DNA of 49,811 bases from a virus (lineage: Duplodnaviria > Heunggongvirae > Uroviricota > Caudoviricetes). The DNA lies in IMG/VR virus record IMGVR_UViG_2579779084_000010. The stretch is one strand, 5' to 3'. The notes below the pieces were generated by a model. That model searched no databases. It saw nothing but the letters and a program-made list of their open reading frames with translations, and was not told the DNA's origin. Positions 9,474 through 43,678 of this stretch are shown one piece after another (the first letter of the stretch is position 1; every line of letters begins with the position of its first letter). The position numbers and the translations under genes were made by a program.

Positions 9474-10049
9474 CTACGGCAGTGCTGGCCATTCAATATC
9501 CTGTGCAGTTGACGTATCAACACGGTTCAGCAATACCCGATACTTTTTCCATGCTTCCAGCAACGAGATTTCTTCCTCCGTTGCAATTTCCAGATCTGCA
9601 GCATCCTGAAGCGGCGCAATATGCTCACTGGCTACCTGCATCAGGTTGTTTTTTGTTTCTTCCGCCTCCCGGATCCGGAACAGTTTTTCTGCTTCTGCAT
9701 CTTTCACCCAAGCTGTGCCGTTCCACTTCTGAAACTCCCCTTCCGGGGATAACCAGGTGACATGTTCCGGTAGCGGTCCGAGTTCAGAAATAAATAACGC
9801 GTCGCCGGAAGCCACGTCATAAACCGTTTTACCCCGATGATCTTCAACGAGATGCCACGATGCCTCATTACTGTTGAAAACGGCTACAAATCCTGCCGGA
9901 ATATCTGGCGGTGCAATATCGGTACTGTTTGCAGGCAGACCTGTATGAGGTGGAATATATGCGTCACCTTCACCAATAAATTCATTAGTTCCGGCCAGCA
10001 GATTATAAATTTTTATGGTCCGTGGTTGTTCACTCATTCTGAATGCCAT
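9474..10049 (-). CDS. tfa: Tail fibre assembly protein (Tfa)
   Basis: 191 aa directly downstream of the side tail fibre gene; the stf stop region overlaps the tfa start; sequence typical of lambdoid Tfa chaperones. Confidence 0.8.
9485..9655. repeat. Direct repeat copy B (tfa 3-prime region)
   Basis: Partner of 6700-6870; the two copies flank the methyltransferase / AT-rich island / invertase segment. Confidence 0.6.
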
Positions 10050-12994
10050 TATGCAAGCCTCACAATGTAGTTAAATGCGATGTTTTTGACGGTGTTTTCC
10101 GCGTTACCAGCAGCGTTAACGGTGATGGTGTGTCCATGTGAGCCAATCGCAACAGAGTGCGTATGAGCACCAATACCGACAGTATGCGCGTGTGCACCTG
10201 CAGATGCTGCTGTGCCAGACAGTGAGTGGCTATGATTACCATCTGTACTGGTATTAGCTAAACACCCCGTAGACATACCTACTGAGCCTTGTACACCCCA
10301 AGTATTTTGACCTGAGCTTGTATAACCATATTGATAAGTATCTTTAAAAACACTGGGGTTAAATCGACGGCCATCTCTATGGCTGTGATTACCAGCTGCA
10401 TTCGTGCTGCCACTTAAACTATGGGTATGCGCACCAGTGTTATTCGTAGATTTAGTGCCGTAATCAAACGACGATGTGGTTTTCGTCCCCAAATCCGTAC
10501 TGGATGCGCTGGCGCTGTGGGTGTGCGATTTAATGCCGTCCTGTTCCTGAGACAATACGGCACGACCACTGGCGGGCTTGCCCTTAATCGTCCAGCCACG
10601 CATATCAGGAATAACGCCTGACGGATAAGCCGCTGCAAGTTTCGGGTATGCAGATTTGTCAAAAGTCTGCCCCTGCATCAGGGCATAACCAGACGGAACG
10701 GTATCTGATGGCCACGGGATTGGTGCACCGACTGGATAAAACTCTGCAGGAGGATGAGCTGAGGTGTAAAGCTGCGCCCACGGCGACCAGTTTGCGTCGG
10801 TCGTATCCCGTCGTGAACGAATAAATGCCGGAGCATGAGCACCGCTTGTACCACTCCAGCCGATGAGTAACTCACCTTCGCCAACGGCTGTCATCCCTTT
10901 CAGGTGAATGATATTTCCATACGCTGTTGGATATCCGTTGTTATACACCTCGTATAACTCAAGACCTGTTGCCCCCTGCGTATTGTCTGTCAGCGCGGTG
11001 ACCCGACCTTTTGAAGCCAGATTAACTGATGATACTGCTGTTCCACCTGACGGTAACGCCCCGATCTCTGATGCCGTTGGCTTATTTCTGGAGTTATAGT
11101 CCCTTCGCCAGCCAGGTGAATAATCTGTTCCGTGATTAATATAGGTAAACTGGGCGTTAGTTGTTCCGCCACCAGTGGAGGTGGTCGGTGTGGTAATGCG
11201 GATCGTCATCGCTGACTTTATCCCCATTACTTCAATGACAGCTCCTGCGAGATGAATATTACCGCAGCCAGTATCAGTAATGATTTTATTATTGCCATAA
11301 GACCAGGAACCCTTGCACATCCAGTATGGATGGTTAAATGCTCCCTGAGAATCCAGCCACTCGATAAACTGTGCAGTCGTCCAGTTTCCTGTTGTTGTGC
11401 TTACTGACCCACCGAAGGCACGACAGGCACCAATATTTTTCGTAAAGGTGTCTTTGCCAGGGATATCAGCACCGTTCTGGTCTTTCTGCAGACGTTTCTC
11501 TGCATTGTCATAGGCTGCTTTTACTGCCTTTGGCGTTGCCGCCAGCGTTTCAGACGTGCTGTTGGTCGCACTGCTGAGCTGTACTATCCCCTTTTTCGTC
11601 GTGCTCGCATCCTCAAGCGCCACGGCGGATGCAATATCCTCTGCCCGTTTTGCTGCTGTCTCGGCGCGCGTTGCCGCGGATTCCGCCGTACTTTTGCTCT
11701 GAGCTGCCGCCGTCGCACTGCCAGCTGCCTCTGTCGCCTTCGTGGATGCCGTCGTGGCGCTGCCTTTCGCTGCTGACGCCTGTCTGGTCGCCTCATCTTT
11801 TGAAGCAGACGCCGATGATGCCGATGACGCCGCCGAACTGGCGGACGATGCGGCAGCCGTTTTTGAGGATTCTGCGCTGGTTTCCGACGCTTTCGCGTTC
11901 GTCTCGGATGTCTTCGCTGCGGAAGCAGACCTCGCTGCTGCGCTGGCCTGTACAGCGGCTTCGCCAGCATTCGTTGTGGCTGTTGAAGCAGACGATGCGG
12001 CACTTTCTGCCGATTTTCCGGCGGCGGTGGCACTGGCTGAGGCCTGCCCGGCACTTGTTGACGCGGCACTGGCAGATGATGCAGCCGCTGTTTTTGAGCC
12101 TGCCGCAGCTGAGGCGCTCTGTCCCGCTGCCGTTTCAGAAGACCTGGCGTTCGTCTCGGACGTTTTTGCCGCCTTCGCGGAATTTCCTGCCGCCGTTGCC
12201 GAGGAAGCGGCATTACTGGCGCTCGAGGCTGCGCTCGTTTCTGATGATTTCGCTGCCTCTTTTGAGGCCGCCGCATCCCGGGCTGAGGTGGCAGCTTCTG
12301 ACGCTTTCGTGGTCGCGGTGGATGCAGAAGTGGCTGCAGATTTTTGTGACGCTGCCGCATTCGTTTCTGACGTTTTCGCCGCACCGGCACTGGTAGCCGC
12401 CGCGCTTTTTGAGGACTCTGCAGCGGCAGCACTTTTTGATGCTTCAGTAGCCTTTGTTGATGCCGTTCCTGCGCTGGAAGACGCTGACTGAGCCGACGTC
12501 GCGGCCTGCCCGGCTGATGTGCTGGCTGCACGAGCTGAGCCTGCAGCATCAGTCGCATGGGTTGCCGCCTCACGGGCTGATGTGCCGGCATCGCTGGCTG
12601 ACTTCTTCGCGGCTGCCGTGTTCTGTGCCACTGCGGACGCGTTACGCGCCACCTCTTCCACCATCAGTTCAAAGCGGCGCAGTGCCTCCGGACGGGCATC
12701 ATCCTCCGTCATGGCACCGAGAAAATCATTCAGCGTACCCGGTTGTGAGTCTTCATACACGGTGATGGTCCCGGCATGCGATGGCGGGAAGCCTTCCACC
12801 AACAGAATAACGCTGTACTGACCGTACTCAACGTCCATGCTGTAACGCCCTGCTTCATCCGGATTTTCAGATGCCACCGTGTTCACCACCACCGTGGTAC
12901 TGTTACGTTTCGCTTTCAGCTGGATTGTGCAGTTCTGTACCGGTTTTCCTGTGCCGTCTTTCAGTACACCTGAAATCTTTACTGCCATATTCAC
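10049..12994 (-). CDS. stf: Side tail fibre protein (Stf) with long Ala/Ser/Thr-rich repeat region and His-rich C-terminal domain
   Basis: 981 aa; N-terminal region like lambdoid Stf; about 350 aa of low-complexity A/S/T repeats; C-terminal HxH motifs (GAHTHS, GNHSHS, GAHAHT, GSHGHT). Confidence 0.8.
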
Positions 12995-12999
12995 CCCAC

Positions 13000-13026
13000 A
13001 AAAAAGCCCGCCTGAACCGGCGGGCT
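13000..13026 (-). terminator. Intrinsic terminator downstream of lom
   Basis: Minus-strand stem GCCCGCCGG / CCGGCGGGC with a 4-nt loop, followed by a T-run. Confidence 0.6.
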
Positions 13027-13052
13027 GTCATAACACTGTGTTACCTGGCTAA

Positions 13053-13652
13053 TCAGAATTTATAACCGACACCCATGATGAAACCGTCAGTGCGCCAGTC
13101 GCCACTGCCGGAGCCTTCATAAGCAATATCAATGGCCACGGATTCGGTCGGGTTAAACTGCACGCCAGCTCCCCACGCCAGAGACGTGTTGCTGTGGCGA
13201 CCGTCATCACTTCCGGTCAGCACGTCGTGCGTTTTCCCCTTGTTGTCAGTTACGCGGAGATAATCCCCGGAGAAAGTCGACACACGGCTGTAAGCCACAC
13301 CCGCCATCGCATACGCGCTGAACCATTCATTCACGCGTACAGACGGCCCCGCCATCACGCTGAACCAGCGGTTACGCACGGAATCTTCATGCCTGCGGGT
13401 ATCGCTGTAGCGCGTTTTTTGCTCATCCTCAGCATTGGCATAACTGAAGGACGTAATCAGCCCCAGCGCGTCCGTAAACTCATAACGGTATTTCACGTTA
13501 ATCCCGTTCAGATCATCACTACCGGGAACGTTCGTCGAGGCATGGAGATACCCCGCGCTCAGCGTGGACTGATGTTCTGCTGCACTCGCTGGCGTAGCAG
13601 CGACGACCTGCCAGACTACTGCGGACAAAATAACAGCACATAATTTACGCAT
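13053..13652 (-). CDS. lom: Lom/Ail/PagC-family outer membrane beta-barrel protein
   Basis: 199 aa; signal peptide then alternating beta-strand pattern, C-terminal aromatic residue (…GVGYKF); position between J and stf as in lambda. Confidence 0.8.
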   Translation of the reverse strand: MRKLCAVILSAVVWQVVAATPASAAEHQSTLSAGYLHASTNVPGSDDLNGINVKYRYEFTDALGLITSFSYANAEDEQKTRYSDTRRHEDSVRNRWFSVMAGPSVRVNEWFSAYAMAGVAYSRVSTFSGDYLRVTDNKGKTHDVLTGSDDGRHSNTSLAWGAGVQFNPTESVAIDIAYEGSGSGDWRTDGFIMGVGYKF

Positions 13653-25155: not shown

Positions 25156-25431
25156 TTACTCAATAAAGATCATTGGCTTACCGTTAAAGCGTTCATGCCG
25201 TGTGACCGTCCAATGTTGTCCGTCATAAACAACGCGATCCCCGCGCCGTGGGCGGTATCCCGAAGAAAACACCACCAGAGAGACCGCAGGTCCGGACAGA
25301 GCATTCAGCTCTGCCAGTGTTTCTCCCGGGATCACAGTCATATCGACATCATTAATCGAGGCTGTCTTTCCCATCTTTCTGACCGTGATCGCATCCATAC
25401 GCGCTGCCAGCCGGGAAAAGGGATCAGACAT
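25156..25431 (-). CDS. Head-tail joining protein (FII-like position)
   Basis: 91 aa ORF between head and tail modules; assignment by position only. Confidence 0.4.
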   Translation of the reverse strand: MSDPFSRLAARMDAITVRKMGKTASINDVDMTVIPGETLAELNALSGPAVSLVVFSSGYRPRRGDRVVYDGQHWTVTRHERFNGKPMIFIE

Positions 25432-25747
25432 TGAGTTTTACCGGCACTTCTTCTGCACTGGTTCCGGCATCTGCCCAGACAACCCCGACCAGCGGATCAG
25501 AGCCGCTGTTAGTCAGCTGAACTTTTCCGGACTTCAGATAAACCTTCTTACCCGTTTTCATGTCATCCGTTTTCAGCTTAGGCAGCATAAACACACCTTC
25601 GGTCAGGCCGTCGCCTGTTTCACCCTGTGGAATATCGGTCAGCGCCACCGCAAAAACATCACCCACCTGCACCAGGTCTCCGCTGCTGATGGCTGCACTG
25701 GCAACAATCGCCACCGTTTTTCCTTCTTCTACAAAATTCTTTGCCAT
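25424..25747 (-). CDS. Head-associated small protein (decoration or head fibre-like), start at internal Met MAKNFVEEGK
   Basis: About 107 aa, directly downstream of the capsid gene and its terminator-like hairpin; assignment by position. Confidence 0.4.
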   Translation of the reverse strand: MAKNFVEEGKTVAIVASAAISSGDLVQVGDVFAVALTDIPQGETGDGLTEGVFMLPKLKTDDMKTGKKVYLKSGKVQLTNSGSDPLVGVVWADAGTSAEEVPVKLNV

Positions 25748-25790
25748 AACTGTCTCCGCACAGCCCCGTTCAGGGGCTGATTTCAGGTAC

Positions 25791-25810
25791 AAAAAAAGCC
25801 CTTACGGGCC
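25791..25810 (-). terminator. Weak terminator-like hairpin plus T-run downstream of the capsid gene
   Basis: Minus-strand GCCC-GTAA-GGGC followed by TTTTTTT; stem is short. Confidence 0.35.
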
Positions 25811-25833
25811 ATCAGAGTTGTTGTCTGCGACGT

Positions 25834-27792
25834 TTACGCCGTACATTTCACCAGACCGCGGTGATCAACTGGCGCGACACCGGCGTCAATACGCACTTTC
25901 GTTGTCACGCCATCCACACTGAAGCCCTCCATCTGATCAATATATGGCGTATCCACACCGTTGAGATAAGCCACTTCAATCGTATCGGAGCCTTTTGACG
26001 CAGCCAGGTAGAAGGTGGTCTGGCTGTTATCATCAAGACGAGGCTCTGCAATAACGGTCGCAAAATCTTTCACCGGGTTAATAATACCGGCGTTAATGTC
26101 AGCCCCCTTGACACTTGAGGAGCGAATGACCTGGTTAGCAACAGACTCCATCGCCGTCGGTACCAGTACGAACGCAGGACGAATATTCAGATGACGCTCC
26201 CCCTCTTTCTGAACGCGCATCAACTGGCGGGCTTTATCCAGCGATGCCACATCCATTGCAGCGCTCTCCAGTACGTTTGCATGTTTCGCTTTATCGAACA
26301 GACTTACATTATCTGTGGAGATTTTCGGGTTAGACGTCAGAATGGCATAAACCAGATCGGCAATAGTAGATTTCGCCGCACGGCCCAGTTTCATCGGGAC
26401 ATCGGTCAGCATATTCAGATCATCATTGATAATGGCCTGACGGGTGATACTGAACAGCTCGCCATAGGTCGCCAGTGCAATAGTGGCCTGTTTATCTCCG
26501 GTGGTGACGTATTTATATTCCGCCCCTTCACGCACCTGCCGCAGAGCACTGAAGCCCCCCATACCCACACGATGGGCAATTTTAAAATCAGACAACTGAC
26601 CTTTCCGCGTCCACTGTTCATAGGTTTCAGGGGCATCTTCCCAGCCCTGCAGAATGGCTTTGTTCGCAACATCCAGCAGAATATTACCGAAGTCAGACGT
26701 ACTGTGTGTGAACGCCGCACCGACCATCTGCATCGGGTTATAACTGGAAACCCCAATACCCCGTTCAGTCAGTGACATACGGGCATATTCACGCAGGGTC
26801 ATCCCGTTGTAGACATTATCACGTTCGGTTTTTTCAAATCCGGCACGCGCCATCAGCGCCTGGCGGATCCCGTCCCCCACAAAATTACCGTTACCGGCAT
26901 AAATATGAGCCGGGGTATTTTTATTGGATGGCGTGGACTCGCGCCCCATCTCGTTCAACAGCTTTTCGCGGGCCTGCTCCAGCGAACATTCAGGATCGGC
27001 AAGACACTGAGCCTGCAGCGTCTGATAACGCCCGCCAAACATGGCAAACAGATCATTAATACCGTTTACACGCGCTTTTTGCTCTGCCAGTACCTGCGCA
27101 CGGATGCTGTTTTCATCCACCACGGGTGCTGCTGCCTGCACTGGCGTCCGGGAGGCTTCAGGTTCATTATCCTGTACGCGTGGAGCACTGTTGCGTGGCG
27201 GAGTAATCATGTTTCGAATGGATTCCGGCATCTTTTTAAATTCCTCTGTACGTTTTGACTGAATACATGCCATTGCCTTAACGGCTGGCGTTACCTGATC
27301 AGCAAATCCATGTGCCAGACATTCGGCACCGGACATCCAGGTCTCATCCGCCAGCATGGCAGCAATTTCATCGGTGGTTTTCCCGGTTTTCTGTGCATAA
27401 GCGGGTAACAGAACCGCCTCAACTTTATCGAGCAGGTCGGCATAGGTGCGCATGTCCTCCGCATCACCGCCCGTAAAGCCAAATGGTTTATGAATCATCA
27501 TGAAGGTGTTTTCCGGCATAATGACCGGGTTTCCCACCATCGCAATGACCGACGCCATTGACGCCGCCACACCGTCGACATAAACGGTAATGGACGCACC
27601 ATGTGTTTTCAGTGCATTAAAAATGGCGATGCCTTCAAAGACATCGCCACCCGGTGAATTAATATGGAGATTAATGTGGGTGATATCGCCCAGTGCATTC
27701 AGATCACTGATAAACTGCTTCGCTGTAACACCCCAGAAACCAATCTCGTCATAAATATAAATATCCGCGTCACTCTGGTGACCAGCCTGCAT
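25834..27792 (-). CDS. Head maturation protease (ClpP/S49-like) fused to scaffold-like linker and HK97-fold major capsid protein
   Basis: About 652 aa from the Met at 27792 (the ORF track extends to 28053 through the portal gene). N-terminal ClpP-like region (INSPGGDVFEG), Ala/Pro-rich linker, C-terminal capsid-like region. Confidence 0.75.
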   Translation of the reverse strand: MQAGHQSDADIYIYDEIGFWGVTAKQFISDLNALGDITHINLHINSPGGDVFEGIAIFNALKTHGASITVYVDGVAASMASVIAMVGNPVIMPENTFMMIHKPFGFTGGDAEDMRTYADLLDKVEAVLLPAYAQKTGKTTDEIAAMLADETWMSGAECLAHGFADQVTPAVKAMACIQSKRTEEFKKMPESIRNMITPPRNSAPRVQDNEPEASRTPVQAAAPVVDENSIRAQVLAEQKARVNGINDLFAMFGGRYQTLQAQCLADPECSLEQAREKLLNEMGRESTPSNKNTPAHIYAGNGNFVGDGIRQALMARAGFEKTERDNVYNGMTLREYARMSLTERGIGVSSYNPMQMVGAAFTHSTSDFGNILLDVANKAILQGWEDAPETYEQWTRKGQLSDFKIAHRVGMGGFSALRQVREGAEYKYVTTGDKQATIALATYGELFSITRQAIINDDLNMLTDVPMKLGRAAKSTIADLVYAILTSNPKISTDNVSLFDKAKHANVLESAAMDVASLDKARQLMRVQKEGERHLNIRPAFVLVPTAMESVANQVIRSSSVKGADINAGIINPVKDFATVIAEPRLDDNSQTTFYLAASKGSDTIEVAYLNGVDTPYIDQMEGFSVDGVTTKVRIDAGVAPVDHRGLVKCTA

Positions 27793-36033: not shown

Positions 36034-36429
36034 CTAACCTCGCATGTCAAAGCCAGATTTCTGAAAATCTCTGTAGACTTCCGGATTGTTGAAGGCCGGA
36101 AATTTGGCTTTATGAGCTGCGGACTTTATCGCTTCGCAATAGGCTTTATCACCGTTACTGGTAGATATTTTTAACGCCGTGCCATCCTGAGAGAATTCCA
36201 TATGCAACCTGCATTTTTTCCCTTTCCAGTTATGCGGCTCATCAAGTTTGGCATTAATTGCAGCTCTGATTCCCCGCGCTTGCGCCCCCCATTCATCCTG
36301 ATCATCCCAGCGTCCTGAACTGCAACTACCTGTAGCAGTAGTTTTGTGGCAATCTGAAGGGTGTAAAGGTGTGCATCCCGCAACAAAACCGACCCAAAAA
36401 GTCAACATGACGATTTTCTTTAATCCCAC
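36034..36429 (-). CDS. Lipoprotein with TolA C-terminal (domain III)-like fold, copy 1
   Basis: 131 aa; signal peptide with lipobox-like FVAGC; C-terminal GKKCRLHMEFSQDGTALKISTSNGDKAYCEAIKSAAHKAKFPAFNNPEVYRDF follows the TolA domain III pattern C-x-L-R ... G-D-x-x-x-C ... P-x-P ... VY..F. Confidence 0.6.
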   Translation of the reverse strand: MGLKKIVMLTFWVGFVAGCTPLHPSDCHKTTATGSCSSGRWDDQDEWGAQARGIRAAINAKLDEPHNWKGKKCRLHMEFSQDGTALKISTSNGDKAYCEAIKSAAHKAKFPAFNNPEVYRDFQKSGFDMRG

Positions 36430-36579
36430 TTCTTGCTCCTCAATCCATTAAAATCTCAGCAATAGTAGTTGTTACGTCCGCCACTGGCTCAGAGCTGACT
36501 ATCCGCTAAATTTAGCTCAGTGCCGTAGTTGTGTCAGAACAAACCTAAGCCGAAACCGTTTATTACAAAACAATAAATA

Positions 36580-37008
36580 TCAGGGTTTAAAATCCAGCAC
36601 CCCATTTTGAAATACTTTATATACTTCCGGCGAAGGGGGGGCAGGTATATCAGCATTCTTTATCGCATTCATCGCTTCACGACATAAATCGAGGTCTCCA
36701 CTTTCTCTTTTAACCTCCAGTAGAAGGCCATTCGGGGCCATATGCATTCTCAGTGTACACTCTTTTCCTGAATACTTACTCGCATCCCCGAACTGTTTTT
36801 CGATGGCGCTCTTGATTTGATGGGCATACAGACGGATATCCTCACTAACATCAGAAGTACGTTCAGATGAACTCACATACTGTGTCTCTATTGCTTTATC
36901 GGAGTAATATGATGTACGGTCATGATAATTTGTCGATACAGCATCAGTGCACCCGATAATAATCCCACTAATAATCAACGTAAGAATTGATGCGCTACGA
37001 AAACCCAT
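36580..37008 (-). CDS. Lipoprotein with TolA C-terminal (domain III)-like fold, copy 2
   Basis: 142 aa; lipobox IIGC; C-terminus GKECTLRMHMAPNGLLLEVKRESGDLDLCREAMNAIKNADIPAPPSPEVYKVFQNGVLDFKP closely parallels the C-terminus of E. coli TolA as I recall it. Confidence 0.6.
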   Translation of the reverse strand: MGFRSASILTLIISGIIIGCTDAVSTNYHDRTSYYSDKAIETQYVSSSERTSDVSEDIRLYAHQIKSAIEKQFGDASKYSGKECTLRMHMAPNGLLLEVKRESGDLDLCREAMNAIKNADIPAPPSPEVYKVFQNGVLDFKP

Positions 37009-37541
37009 TTTTCCTCACATATGTCATATAGTAAAGGATTATATATACCGTTGTTTTGGACGCTCAAACAGCGAATCAGATCAAATAAAACGCACATTTG
37101 TTAACATTTACACAAAGTCTGCGTGGGATATTCTGAAAGAATATCCATAATGTGGAGAGAATCTATTGAAGTGCATGGTGCCGGGTGCCTCCCGGTGAAT
37201 TCAGTACCAGCACCTGAATCCGCGATTATCCCATATACCTACTCGCTGATTGCCCCTCCGCACAGGGGGATTCACCATGCCAGTTTCTTTTAACAAACTC
37301 CCCGCAAACCAGACAACAGTCAACCGCCTGAATTGTGAAGTATTTAAAAATTTCTCCCGCTAACTGATACCCGGCTAACAGTCCGGCGTTTTCTTTTTCA
37401 GCAACGGGAAAGCAATAACCACCACACCCGCCACCAGCACACCGTCAGCCAGCACTGACATTATCCGGCTGCTGCAATGCCATTCACAAAAACAGTAAGC
37501 AATAACTTTTTACCGTAACAGGTGATAATCCAGATATGTAT

Positions 37542-38005: not shown

Positions 38006-38082
38006 TGGCGCGCTGTACTGGATTCGAACCAGTGACCGATTGCTTAGAAGGCAATTGCTCTGTCCGGCTGAGCTAACAACGC
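38006..38082 (-). tRNA. tRNA-Arg (anticodon UCU)
   Basis: Cloverleaf folded by hand: acceptor GCGTTGT/ACAGCGC, D-arm GCTC..GAGC, anticodon stem ATTGC/GCAAT with loop CTTCTAA, T-arm ACTGG-TTCGAAT-CCAGT, 3-prime GCCA. Confidence 0.8.
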
Positions 38083-38182
38083 TGAATACCGATAATGGAC
38101 CGCCATCGGGGACCCGCCCCCGCACCAACAACCCTGTTATCGCGTCGTCTGCTCTTCCTGATAAGCTAATGGCGGTTTGTGA

Positions 38183-38258
38183 TGGTGGCCCTTGCTGGAT
38201 TTGAACCAGCGACCTGGCGATTATGAGTCGCTCGCTCTCACCACTGAGCTAAAGGGCC
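38183..38258 (-). tRNA. tRNA with CAU anticodon (Ile2/lysidine-type by similarity to E. coli ileX, or Met)
   Basis: GGCCCTTTAGCTCAGTGGTGAGAGCGAGCGACTCATAATCGCCAGGTCGCTGGTTCAAATCCAGCAAGGGCCACCA on the minus strand; anticodon loop CTCATAA. Confidence 0.8.
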
Positions 38259-41626: not shown

Positions 41627-42091
41627 AGCCTGCTTCTCCTTGCCTTTCGGCACGTAAGAGGCTAACCTACATGTGTCTAGCATGAAATTGGCCTCAGATT
41701 AATGTTAAGCGTCTTGCAGGACGCGTAATGTTAACTGGGGCTTTTCTCTATCTGCCGTTGGTGTTCATGCCCGAGGCAGATAGCCTCAAGCACCCGCAGC
41801 CATTCTACTTAACTACCGTTACCTCGCCAATGTGAAATCAGTCAGAAAGGCGATCCATAAGAACAATAGCAAGACAATAAATCGCCATTACAGCCGTAAT
41901 AGCCAGCGCACATTTGAGAACCAGCACCACAACCTCCTGTATTGGACGTACACCAGTCCTGATGAATATGAGGCTGTCTCGTCAGTGATTCAATACAACT
42001 ATTGGGTATAGTTTCTCTGATTTTTTCTGTGGAAATGGGGCTCAACCACTAGTCATTTAATACGCAAAGTCCGATACAAGCTAACCTTCTA

Positions 42092-42115
42092 GTCCGCTTT
42101 GAGCGAAAAGCGGAC
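42092..42115. repeat. Palindromic hairpin GTCCGCTTT-GAGCGA-AAAGCGGAC bounding the HAD/NUDIX cassette (downstream side)
   Basis: Perfect 9-bp inverted repeat; shares the GTCCGCTT/AAGCGGAC arms with the hairpin at 43558-43581. Confidence 0.55.
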
Positions 42116-42175
42116 GTTGGAAGTTTAAAACTCGCGAACTACTCAGCGTCCATTGATGCGTATTGTGTAACGTGA

Positions 42176-42820
42176 TTAACCACAGATGATATTGAAACGT
42201 TCTCCGGAAATCTTGACCATAATGTCAGACAGTTCGCTGACGGCATGGGCTTCAGATGATCCCAGAGCGTCAGGCTGAACAGCTATTACCGAAGCTCCAC
42301 TTGCCAGCCCTGCTTTTATACCCGCAGATGCATCCTCAAATACCACGCATTCACCAGGCTCAAGGCCCAAAGCCAAAGCTGCTTTGATGTAACCCTCGGG
42401 ACTTGGTTTTCCCGTCATTACATCTTCTGCACACACCATTACTCTGGGTAAGGGGAGATTAGCCGCTTTCATCCTGTTTTCGGCAAGCATTCTGCCTGCA
42501 GAAGTGACAAGTGCCCAGCTATCCGGTGGCAGTTTTGATAAGAGTGCAGCGGCCCCTTTTACTTCAGTAACGCCTTCTGTCGTGTTGATTTCAACCTCTT
42601 CGAGTGAGGCCGCGATTTTATTGGTTTTCTCACCTGCACCAATAAAATGCGTTAGTGTATCAATCGTTTGCCGCCCGTGTGCGTAAGCAATCACAGCCTG
42701 AGAATCAAGACCGTATTCTGCACAAAAATCTCTCCAGACGCTTTCCACTACGGCTGTTGAATCAACCAGCGTACCGTCCATATCGAATAAAAAACCCTTA
42801 GCGTTGAATATCATTGCCAT
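42176..42820 (-). CDS. HAD-superfamily hydrolase (subfamily IA phosphatase/phosphomutase-like)
   Basis: 214 aa; motif I FDMDGTLVDS (nucleophile Asp and Asp+2), motif II-like TSAG, motif III/IV K...EDASAG. Confidence 0.75.
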   Translation of the reverse strand: MAMIFNAKGFLFDMDGTLVDSTAVVESVWRDFCAEYGLDSQAVIAYAHGRQTIDTLTHFIGAGEKTNKIAASLEEVEINTTEGVTEVKGAAALLSKLPPDSWALVTSAGRMLAENRMKAANLPLPRVMVCAEDVMTGKPSPEGYIKAALALGLEPGECVVFEDASAGIKAGLASGASVIAVQPDALGSSEAHAVSELSDIMVKISGERFNIICG

Positions 42821-42843
42821 TCCTTAATGGTTGCAGAAGAAAG

Positions 42844-43482
42844 TTAATCAAACCATGTTTTTTCATCACCTTTCGCTACTCTCAGGCTGACAGCAATCTG
42901 CTCAGGCACAATTCTTGAAAGCGACAATTCAGGCAGGTCGTTGACATCAAAAAAATCAGCATCGAGTGACTCATGGCTGATTGACAGGCTGCCACCTACT
43001 TCTTCACAGAGAAAAATCAGCTTGTAAACATGCCAGGGTAAAGGCGGATGGCCGTGAAGATTACGATCCCAAACTCCCAATAGTTTAGTCACTCTGACTT
43101 TTAATCCGGTTTCTTCTTCGACCTCTCGACGCACAGCTTCAGAAGGTGTATCTCCAACATCTGCCCATCCGCCAGGAAGACTCCATAATCCATCTGCAGC
43201 CTCTTTCACCATCAGAATACGATTATTACGCAGGATAAACGCACGCACATCTGTTTTGGGCGTCGCGTAACCCGTTTCCGATACATGAAACAAATCATTG
43301 CGGCTAATATCAAACTGCGAACTCAGCAGTCCAGCGGCAATTTCACGCAAGGCTTCATAGCGTTCCTTGTCAAAGACGTCTTTTGAATAGGTCAGGCCTG
43401 ACTGCGCGAGGGCCTTTAGTCTCTGGGCAACAAAAATAAGCTTTTCTTGGGTCAACACTTCAGACATGTTTTTCATCTTCAT
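42844..43482 (-). CDS. NUDIX hydrolase with N-terminal accessory domain
   Basis: 212 aa; Nudix box GGWADVGDTPSEAVRREVEEETG matches GX5EX7REUXEEXGU; about 85-aa N-terminal domain before the catalytic fold. Confidence 0.75.
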   Translation of the reverse strand: MKMKNMSEVLTQEKLIFVAQRLKALAQSGLTYSKDVFDKERYEALREIAAGLLSSQFDISRNDLFHVSETGYATPKTDVRAFILRNNRILMVKEAADGLWSLPGGWADVGDTPSEAVRREVEEETGLKVRVTKLLGVWDRNLHGHPPLPWHVYKLIFLCEEVGGSLSISHESLDADFFDVNDLPELSLSRIVPEQIAVSLRVAKGDEKTWFD

Positions 43483-43557
43483 TTATGTATTCAGAGTTCC
43501 TGTTAAGGATACTGCTCAATTCAATGAAGAATAACAAATGCATCTGGCACCTGCTAT

Positions 43558-43581
43558 GTCCGCTTCTGGCACAAAGCGGAC
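43558..43581. repeat. Palindromic hairpin GTCCGCTT-CTGGCACA-AAGCGGAC bounding the HAD/NUDIX cassette (upstream side)
   Basis: 8-bp inverted repeat with the same arms as 42092-42115. Confidence 0.55.
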
Positions 43582-43678
43582 AACCACGCCAGATCTACCC
43601 TGTGCCATGAAAAATGAGAATGTCAATTCACTCCTGAACTAATGCTTTTTAATCTAGTAACGTCTAAAATACCTAACA

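Follow-up and report, generated by a model that had tools for sequence, protein, structure and literature searches.

The stretch of DNA analysed here, called the window, is the virus record IMGVR_UViG_2579779084_000010 of IMG/VR (Caudoviricetes) at its full length of 49,811 nucleotides. On account of the genes that neighbour the segment under study, it is a Qin/Rac-like lambdoid prophage. Between its replication genes and hok, two genes encoding a NUDIX hydrolase with an N-terminal domain and a HAD-IA hydrolase (DxDGT motif) are enclosed by two hairpins (A upstream, B downstream; Table 1). This gene content had been announced by an original prediction made from the sequence alone, and open reading frames (ORFs), Pfam domains and motifs agree with it. 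The NUDIX-HAD segment is a discrete mobile cassette delimited by hairpins, since the same hairpin-to-hairpin segment is found in P2-like phages and other cargos occupy the same prophage site; its acquired nature, also predicted, is thereby borne out. The overall reading, to which a probability of about 0.6 is given, is that of a hairpin-delimited 1.49-kb cargo in a variable hotspot, i.e., an enterobacterial NUDIX-HAD operon that would split a nucleoside diphosphate linked to a group X (NDP-X), with a role that is rather not counter-defence. The enzymes look ordinary and represent a new cargo of hotspots that were already known; the interest lies in the hairpins.

In a search of a phage collection, positions 42091-43581 of the window (1,491 bp) are 99.3% identical in the P2-like phages P2_4C9 and 10W. 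The match covers positions 192-1682 of the query, i.e., one hairpin to the other. In both phages the cassette lies between the tail-fibre assembly gene G and the sheath gene FI, i.e., at the Z/fun position. A third copy is carried by a P2-like viral contig (L095), just downstream of a P2-type gpA (Phage_GPA) and a Dam methylase gene. In a related contig (L012) this gpA/Dam-side hotspot falls between gpA and the portal/terminase genes; it resembles the tin/old position of P2, which adjoins cos. The copies of the window, P2_4C9 and L095 are identical inside the cassette and unrelated outside, and boundary alignments place the switch within the hairpins. At hairpin A, homology with P2_4C9 and L095 stops inside the hairpin, the left arm and the loop going with the cargo and the right arm with the flank. 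At hairpin B, homology starts inside the hairpin and the outer arm changes with the context. Among 5,426 complete E. coli genomes (megablast), the full arrangement, i.e., cassette plus flanks, is present in 19 and the cassette alone in 22; natural lysogens include E. coli PapRG-04-4 and AR_0017. Partly deleted copies are also found in E. coli, with a HAD-like remnant or with HAD only. In the phage collection, the NUDIX protein is limited to two P2-like phages, besides relatives below 47% identity.

The hairpin at 42092-42115 reads GTCCGCTTTGAGCGAAAAGCGGAC and the hairpin at 43558-43581 reads GTCCGCTTCTGGCACAAAGCGGAC. The pattern GTCCGCTT-N8-AAGCGGAC has only these two matches in the window with 2 mismatches permitted, for a chance expectation of 0.02 (100 shuffles). 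Folded as single-stranded DNA (ssDNA), each hairpin gives −8.9 to −10.3 kcal/mol, with z values of −3.1 to −5.5. The two had been predicted as matching hairpins: their arms and coordinates are confirmed, with the correction that, by their loops, they are inverted and not direct copies, of two types (79% complementarity over 33 nt in the inverted sense). Loop type A is YTGGCACA (plus strand, 43558) and loop type B is YTCGCTCA (minus strand, 42092). On both strands, the sequences that come after the hairpins (GTTGGAAG / CTAGAAGG and AACCACGC / ATAGCAGG) lack a T tract, and a terminator scan made no call there.

The occupants of the site between DUF977/LygF and hok were surveyed among the viral contigs matched by the hairpin pattern (at least 120). 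Seven occupant sizes are found between the same two outer flanks among the matches listed (Table 1), so at least six other cargos replace the NUDIX-HAD cassette at this site. The lambdoid phages mEp460_ev081 and Tritos have yet another gene as cargo at the same LygF-hok site. No empty site, i.e., the two flanks joined without cargo, is present among the 5,426 complete E. coli genomes. The cargo of 3,513 bp (positions 9549-13062 of the reverse complement of contig L030), has a GC content of 37%. It comprises a SIR2 protein that is ThsA-like by PADLOC, a Ham1-type NTP pyrophosphatase, an adenosine deaminase that matches the deaminase part of CARF_ADA, and a possible regulator of 177 aa; it looks like a candidate for a nucleotide-targeting defence. 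A further hotspot, with a type A hairpin, is seen between a UmuC-like polymerase gene and a SRAP (YedK-like) gene in four contigs (L035, L086, L100, L022). Among the genes carried there are those of an MFS transporter, a putative AbiC and a DUF4209 protein that is also present at the prophage site. The same A/B pair bounds the P2-like Z/fun and gpA/Dam-side hotspots and intergenic cassettes of Pantoea; the UmuC-SRAP site shows type A.

These hairpins are not private to the cassette. The exact pattern is found in at least 120 viral contigs and at least 120 species-representative genomes. About 140 chance matches of the exact pattern are expected in 596 Gb; chance was rejected as the source of most matches, since these share recurrent loops, AT flanks and doublets. 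The enterobacterial set contains 236 unique hairpin-plus-flank combinations. A single outer flank is combined with 10 inner flanks on the P2 G side, 9 on the P2 FI side, 8 on the hok side and 6 on the LygF side, and 16 inner flanks are paired with at least two outer flanks. Between adjacent cassettes stands a doublet. Each of the 38 distinct doublets has the order B(+)-spacer-A(−), and in 21 of them the spacer has 18 nt and resembles CTTCAGCTCAGTTACCTG. The outer flanks of the cassette of the window themselves resemble decayed partner hairpins: the left one (42062-42091) consists of ACGCAAAGTCCG and an 18-nt spacer, followed by hairpin B, and in the right one (43582-43615) hairpin A is followed by an 18-nt spacer and CTGTGCCAT, with a type A loop. 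Because of this resemblance, both cassette ends may be old doublets.

The same A and B loops and doublets occur in Pantoea as intergenic repeats. With a 30-nt probe of hairpin A, a single Pantoea megaplasmid gives as many as 22 matches. Over the whole plasmid collection, 2,964 records are matched by the probe, of which Klebsiella accounts for 1,774; most are conjugative. Along 50 kb of a Pantoea agglomerans plasmid (L441, NZ_CP134762), 8 clear copies were counted; each is intergenic, and doublets take the form B-14 nt-A. One pair of these copies, A(−) and B(+), encloses genes for a PAAR-domain protein, an Imm74 immunity protein and a DcrB-related protein (25254-27783), and the topology of this PAAR-toxin/Imm74 cassette is that of the phage cassettes. 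In contig L028 (6632-9571), an element of the IS110 family of insertion sequences (IS), with DEDD_Tnp_IS110 and Transposase_20 domains (cargo positions 1419-2939), interrupts a type A hairpin precisely behind position 1 of its loop, so that the hairpin is split into GTCCGCTTC and TTTGGCACAAAGCGGAC with the IS in between. Insertion sequences of the IS110 family are known to target repetitive extragenic palindromic (REP) elements. In view of the two types, inverted doublets, short linkers and intergenic multi-copy occurrence, the hairpins are a two-type repeat family resembling REP elements and bacterial interspersed mosaic elements (BIMEs). P2 itself (NC_001895) has only two degenerate hairpin copies, one on each side of fun(Z); in the one P4 genome searched (NC_001609) no copy was found, even under relaxed criteria. 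Hairpins with the same stem, loop TTGACCCA and AT flanks (ATGTCCGCTTTGGGTCAAAAGCGGACAT) are also seen in Alphaproteobacteria (Pseudolabrys, Xanthobacteraceae, Sphingomonas) and Xanthomonadales (L123-L242). These copies are often paired about 20 nt apart and yield spurious ORFs starting with MSALG.KRT; IS110-type transposases recur near the alphaproteobacterial ones.

The comparison of pairs of sites shows where cargo is exchanged. When the outer flank is the same and the cargo different, position 8 of the left arm and position 1 of the loop vary in 38-71% of pairs, loop positions 2-7 are near-invariant (at most 4% of pairs) and the type B right arm is almost constant. When a type A hairpin has the same cargo and a different outer flank (9 pairs), the left arm and the loop are nearly constant (at most 1 of 9 differing per position) and position 1 of the right arm differs in 56% of pairs. 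The boundary alignments of the NUDIX-HAD cassette repeat this pattern. The hairpins are thus the points where cargo is exchanged: the cargo-side arm and most of the loop travel and the other arm stays. In the simplest reading, joints form within the near-invariant loop core; as independent events are few, we infer the mechanism of exchange and do not observe it. Exchange within the loop core could proceed by short-homology recombination on the common element of about 24 nt. Alternatively, a hairpin-specific cleavage-and-joining enzyme could act at the loop core. In a more elaborate version, which is tentative and would lose an even bet, A and B would be paired, hetero-specific sites of a hairpin-directed cassette exchange carried out on folded ssDNA by a trans-acting, unlinked enzyme. 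The candidate enzyme would be of HUH/Y1 type or IS110-like, and would cut and rejoin within the loop core, in an integron-like manner without a resident integrase.

If true, hairpin-directed exchange would move defence genes, type VI secretion system effector-immunity pairs and metabolic operons among unrelated temperate phages, plasmids and Enterobacterales chromosomes. It would explain the rapid swapping of defence genes that was left without mechanism by the 2026 study of P2 and P4, and the absence of hairpins from P4 might explain why P4 rarely swaps cargo with P2; a near absence of cargo exchange between the two has been reported. An opposite explanation is that the hairpins are mere terminators or insulators of neighbouring operons, the cargo being exchanged by homologous recombination in conserved flanking genes. 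Hairpins are indeed common at operon ends, and within one phage family kilobases of flank homology are available. However, (i) a T tract is lacking on both strands and the terminator scan made no call; (ii) the annotated terminator of the P2 V operon is a different site; (iii) the identity between lambdoid and P2 cassettes stops inside the hairpins, with no common flank; (iv) stems vary from one context to another, the loop core hardly at all; (v) the doublets have a fixed B(+)/A(−) architecture; (vi) the IS110-family element is exactly in the loop, as for IS elements that target REPs. Terminators or insulators with no part in the exchange are a highly improbable account. The possibility, raised together with the original prediction, that the hairpins are unrelated terminators is likewise dismissed by the missing T run, the silent scan and the widespread REP-like family. 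It should be noted that the classes of integron, IS200/IS605-type element and moron were also considered and rejected, as no integrase or transposase gene lies beside the site in the loci examined and no own transcription signals are present.

The NUDIX protein has significant Pfam matches to Nudix_N (7.6e-18), an N-terminal helix-loop-helix (HLH) domain, and to NUDIX (7.9e-19). Since its homologues have 207 aa, the true start may be an ATG five codons in. The Nudix box GWADVGDTPSEAVRREVEEETGL fits GX5EX7REUXEEXGU, save Asp for the first Glu (a conservative change). The closest solved relatives are CDP-Chase of B. cereus (3Q1P/6NCH, 7.2e-50, with roughly half of the aligned residues identical), a protein of S. 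suis labelled ADP-ribose pyrophosphatase (3O8S, 4.1e-42) and the UDP-X diphosphatase of S. pneumoniae (4HFQ, 2e-37). The subfamily of CDP-Chase and UDP-X diphosphatase is defined by a length of about 200-210 aa, the HLH motif G-U-X-Xar-X2-D-X-Xar-D-X-[E/D]-R-Xar, the hinge YXTP, the motif LPXLS and the Nudix signature G-Xar-Xsm-[E/D]-U-X2-[S/T]-X2-E-X3-K-E-U-X-E-E-X-G-U (Duong-Ly et al. 2013, PMC3655063). All these motifs are found in the NUDIX protein: HLH GLTYSKDVFDKERY, YATP, LPELS and the signature GWADVGDTPSEAVRREVEEETGL, with Arg for Lys, in a chain of 207-212 aa. By its motifs, it is thus assigned to the CDP-Chase/UDP-X diphosphatase type. Characterised members hydrolyse CDP-choline, or UDP-MurNAc, UDP-MurNAc-L-Ala and UDP-glucose, and also act as 3'-5' RNA exonucleases (PMC3655063); an asymmetric homodimer is counted among the traits of the subfamily.

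The HAD protein matches HAD_2 of Pfam (2.2e-22) and TIGR01509 (61 bits, for a cut-off of 29.4 bits). HAD-IA motifs I-IV are present (FDMDGT, LVTSA, GKPSPEGY and FEDASAG). The nearest curated family is that of the E. coli YfbT-type 'sugar phosphatase' (NCBIfam PRK11587), with 190.9 bits, i.e., below the equivalog cut-off of 282 bits, and the best solved relative is the glycerol-3-phosphatase of yeast (2QLT, 6e-23). The protein is thus classed, on its profile scores, as a YfbT/PRK11587-like sugar or polyol phosphate phosphatase, related to YfbT and not the same enzyme. NUDIX would split NDP-X into a nucleoside monophosphate and X-phosphate, from which HAD would then release phosphate; such a two-step breakdown is plausible. 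Judged from family membership, its sole basis, the likeliest substrate class would be a pyrimidine-nucleotide-activated sugar or alcohol. The two-step route from a NUDIX enzyme to a phosphatase was part of the original prediction: as chemistry it is reasonable, and such pairs exist elsewhere, but the ADP-ribose- or NAD-derived substrate finds no support in a subfamily whose characterised members act on CDP-choline and UDP-X.

The nearest relatives of the NUDIX protein (66-84% identity) are encoded by 207-aa chromosomal genes of Cedecea, Pseudescherichia, Leclercia, Enterobacter, Pantoea and Kluyvera. In the three chromosomal contexts examined, the NUDIX homologue is alone, without HAD. A diverged NUDIX-HAD pair is found in L436/L437, near integrase genes (NUDIX 80% and HAD 72% identical). 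In L438 (HAD 84% identical), the pair stands among ordinary genes whose closest named relatives are in Pantoea and Rouxiella; an A-like hairpin precedes GGACT-NUDIX-HAD there, and a B-A doublet directly follows HAD. In L248, NUDIX alone lies between two exact type A hairpins, and the named relatives of the adjacent gene are in Erwinia, Pantoea and Kosakonia. Since diverged NUDIX-HAD pairs occur elsewhere, the pairing is not accidental. In view of the chromosomal relatives, the diverged pairs and the hairpins beside them, the cassette looks like a chromosomal operon of an Erwiniaceae-like genome, moved to phage hotspots with or by its flanking repeats. Ordinary chromosomal homologues had been named beforehand as an observation that would speak against a phage function: this is partly borne out, the nearest relatives being ordinary chromosomal genes.

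In a lysogen the cassette would, speculatively, drain an activated envelope or sugar precursor, and the result might be a function of lysogenic-conversion or exclusion type, or a neutral passenger, and not counter-defence. A lysogen-side role and a neutral passenger are ranked as about equally likely, and counter-defence as unlikely. In the counter-defence explanation, which was that of the original prediction, NUDIX would cleave an immune signal derived from ADP-ribose or NAD (Thoeris, CBASS, NADase systems), and HAD would complete its degradation, thus protecting the phage. Nudix enzymes can cleave molecules of the ADP-ribose (ADPR) type, a role against ADPR-derived signals has been proposed for Nudix domains of phages (PMC9503650), the structural-genomics relative 3O8S bears its ADP-ribose pyrophosphatase label and the gene order gives a two-step route. 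All this has to be set against the CDP-choline and UDP-X substrates of the characterised subfamily members, the chromosomal location of the closest NUDIX relatives, the restriction of the protein to two phages of the collection (besides the distant relatives mentioned), the defence-like cargo, expressed for the lysogen, that these sites otherwise hold, and the counter-defence literature searched, in which no NUDIX-HAD pair is described. No match to the Tad, Acb or NARP1-3 modules was found, as judged by domain composition (Nudix_N+NUDIX and HAD only) and literature and not by profile comparison. A counter-defence module is consequently very unlikely.

Hydrolysis of an activated sugar or alcohol (e.g., UDP-glucose, CDP-glycerol or CDP-ribitol) could instead alter a surface receptor, i.e., lysogenic conversion, or deny a precursor to incoming phages and starve them, e.g., of UDP-glucose for DNA glucosylation. 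This joint explanation is rather doubtful, with clearly better prospects than counter-defence. It draws on the location of the cassette at the P2 Z/fun site and at the gpA/Dam-side site of a P2-like contig, since in P2 itself the Z and A-side positions are occupied by fun(Z), tin and old, which are annotated as lysogenic-conversion or exclusion genes (hotspots: PMC9122126, PMC13586616). Moreover, the other cargos of the prophage site are defence-like, among them the nucleotide-metabolism trio SIR2, Ham1 and adenosine deaminase, and UDP-Xase hydrolyses UDP-glucose and UDP-MurNAc. Nevertheless, location is the sole argument: PADLOC (PADLOC-DB v2) gives only a weak match of the Nudix domain to the candidate PDC-S07 (6.6e-10) and none for HAD, no defence model fits, neither sensor nor regulator is present, no promoter is evident and the same operon exists in ordinary chromosomal settings. 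A neutral metabolic passenger, i.e., an Erwiniaceae-like chromosomal operon captured only because it carried hairpins and with no phage-related role, has a slightly better though still minor chance. The hairpins around GGACT-NUDIX-HAD in L438 and around NUDIX in L248 agree with such a capture, as do the rarity in E. coli, the partly deleted copies and the lack of an evident promoter. On the other hand, intact copies of the cassette, conserved at more than 99%, are present in at least three phage contexts and 21 genomes, which suggests recent spread or selection, and phage genome space is limited, so that neutral cargo is usually lost.

Several observations weigh against the overall reading and its account of the exchange: (i) the loop as exchange point is drawn from few independent events, namely the 9 type A pairs; (ii) type B pairs with the same cargo vary in the cargo-side arm too (up to 52% at position 8), one cluster being dominant; (iii) no recombinase or transposase is linked to the hairpins, and in a clustering of the ORFs near 120 alphaproteobacterial hairpin loci only paralogues of an ABC-binding protein and a few IS110 transposases recur; (iv) no RayT homologue was found by tblastn on Pantoea plasmids; (v) a promoter scan gave no convincing sigma-70 promoter inside the cassette; (vi) the cassette is rare (0.4% of complete E. 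coli genomes), a frequency compatible with a neutral passenger and with a useful gene alike; (vii) the substrate class is drawn from two characterised Gram-positive relatives, one of them sharing roughly half of the aligned residues.

The Z/fun and tin/old positions are the cargo hotspots of P2-like phages (Rousset et al. 2022, PMC9122126; Moura de Sousa et al. 2026, PMC13586616). As in these, turnover is rapid between conserved flanks, and the identical cassette is present at Z/fun of P2_4C9 and 10W and at the P2-like gpA/Dam-side site; unlike these, the host here is a Qin-like lambdoid prophage, in which LygF/DUF977 and hok border the site. The supplements of the 2022 study list HAD-only cargos and an unrelated HNH-NUDIX (PMC9122126). 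Recent large studies of the P2/P4 hotspots describe a very rapid turnover of defence genes, with unrelated mobile elements among the exchange partners. How genes are exchanged with such elements is stated to be unknown in the 2026 study, which finds transposable elements nearly absent from the hotspots (PMC13586616). The main texts of PMC9122126 and PMC13586616 contain no mention of hairpin, palindrome, inverted repeat or Nudix, and a full-text literature search for the motif GTCCGCTT/AAGCGGAC returned unrelated primer matches only.

In GenBank record AJ512685 (P2-EC67 Z-region, 2004), both hairpin types, A and B, fall within the repeats annotated as 'left inverted repeat' (3-115) and 'right inverted repeat' (1255-1345); the P2-EC67 Z-region and P2 fun(Z) are both flanked by degenerate hairpin copies. 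Flanking inverted repeats at the P2 Z-region were thus already on record. Going by its Z-region description, this record presumably belongs to Nilsson, Karlsson and Haggard-Ljungquist (2004; Mol Biol Evol 21:1). The title of that article proposes site-specific recombination. The record covers the P2 Z-region only, while the present data add a lambdoid prophage, a second P2-like site, the UmuC-SRAP site and the Pantoea family. In the literature searched, the following were not found described: the hairpins at the lambdoid, second P2-like and UmuC-SRAP sites, the REP/BIME-like nature of the Pantoea copies, the A/B typing, the fixed doublets and the loop-level junctions. The inverted repeats annotated in 2004 and unmentioned in the main texts of both recent hotspot papers are thus revived here. 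One hairpin family marks the exact cargo junctions in at least three kinds of phage hotspot (lambdoid, P2-like, UmuC-SRAP) and in Pantoea replicons. A typed and oriented hairpin pair with breakpoints in the loop is a testable candidate for the swapping mechanism stated to be unknown (PMC13586616). The hairpin is also a simple sequence tag for cargo hotspots in prophages, hence for new defence or conversion genes.

As with REP elements and BIMEs (in E. coli, REP of Y and Z types with RayT), the hairpins are short imperfect intergenic palindromes with many copies per replicon, in two types forming inverted doublets with short linkers, and are targeted by an IS110-family element. They differ from the REP elements of E. 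coli K-12 in that the sequence is unrelated and the E. coli copies seen sit in phage or prophage hotspots, with only two in the window. Among REPs, GTAG- and CGTC/TGTC-tagged ones have been distinguished, the latter mostly alphaproteobacterial and without dedicated transposase (Di Nocera et al. 2013, PMC3733652). Many hairpin copies are preceded by C or T, which gives CGTC/TGTC as in that class, whereas their loop has 8 nt instead of the 4-5 nt described for CGTC REPs (PMC3733652). With integron cassettes the system shares promoter-poor cassettes in arrays, structured imperfect palindromes between them and exchange at a folded site. In contrast to integrons, there is no adjacent integrase, attI or Pc (window, P2-like loci and L002), each cassette has two different half-sites, and the element, of 24 nt (about 66 nt as a doublet), is not an attC site of 57-141 nt and has neither R/L boxes nor the GTTRRRY box. 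As for lambdoid morons, an extra non-essential gene block of lower GC than its surroundings (46.6% for the cassette vs. 50.2% for the whole window) is placed between conserved early genes; unlike morons, it has no recognisable promoter or terminator of its own and is bounded by a common repeat family and not by transcription signals. The NUDIX protein shares with CDP-Chase (B. cereus) and the UDP-X diphosphatase (S. pneumoniae SP_1669) the two-domain layout and every published motif. That subfamily was described as confined to Gram-positive bacteria (PMC3655063), whereas the clade found here is enterobacterial and phage-borne, has the canonical Arg for Lys in the Nudix signature and is paired with a HAD phosphatase.

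Table 1. Features of the cassette in the window and occupants found between the same outer flanks at the prophage site.
Feature	Position in window	Strand	Size	Description
Whole cargo cassette	42092..43581	-	1,490 bp	hairpin to hairpin
Hairpin A	43558..43581	+		8-bp stem, loop CTGGCACA; upstream cassette boundary, DUF977/LygF side
NUDIX ORF	42844..43482	-	212 aa	Nudix_N + NUDIX (Pfam)
HAD-IA ORF	42176..42820	-	214 aa	HAD_2 (Pfam); starts 23 nt downstream of the NUDIX gene
Hairpin B	42092..42115	-		8-bp stem, loop TTCGCTCA on the minus strand; downstream boundary, hok/sok side
Prophage-site occupant			1,228 bp	protein annotated HEPN domain-containing by RefSeq; also in other E. coli prophages
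Prophage-site occupant			1,490 bp	NUDIX-HAD
Prophage-site occupant			1,731 bp	low-GC gene of no assigned family
Prophage-site occupant			2,104 bp	DUF7380/DUF4209, matching PADLOC candidate PDC-S39
Prophage-site occupant			2,939 bp	GNAT + XRE + IS110-family element
Prophage-site occupant			3,513 bp	SIR2 (ThsA-like) + Ham1 + adenosine deaminase + possible regulator
Prophage-site occupant			4,063 bp	2,104-bp cargo with an insertion of two extra ORFs

The upstream neighbours of the cassette are genes for a cI-like repressor, a Cro-like protein, YdaT, a replication protein and DUF977 (LygF in phage records). Downstream are sok/hok (sok being Rfam RF01794), rem, DUF968, RusA and an antiterminator. 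An Rfam scan of the region and of the whole window gave nothing at the hairpins, and only sok, IS009, STnc100 and two tRNAs elsewhere: the matches at 9508-9706, 37119-37309 and 38006-38258 are to IS009 RNA, the sRNA STnc100, tRNA-Arg(tct) and tRNA-Met(cat). The two tRNA genes sit just downstream of the antiterminator gene. Downstream of this antiterminator and tRNA region, a degenerate hairpin copy GTCCGCCACTGGCTCAGAGCTGAC, then a second hairpin-like relic, are found at 36476-36530 of the window. They separate two paralogous small genes of the minus strand (36034-36429 and 36580-37008), and may represent a second, decayed cargo site in the same prophage.

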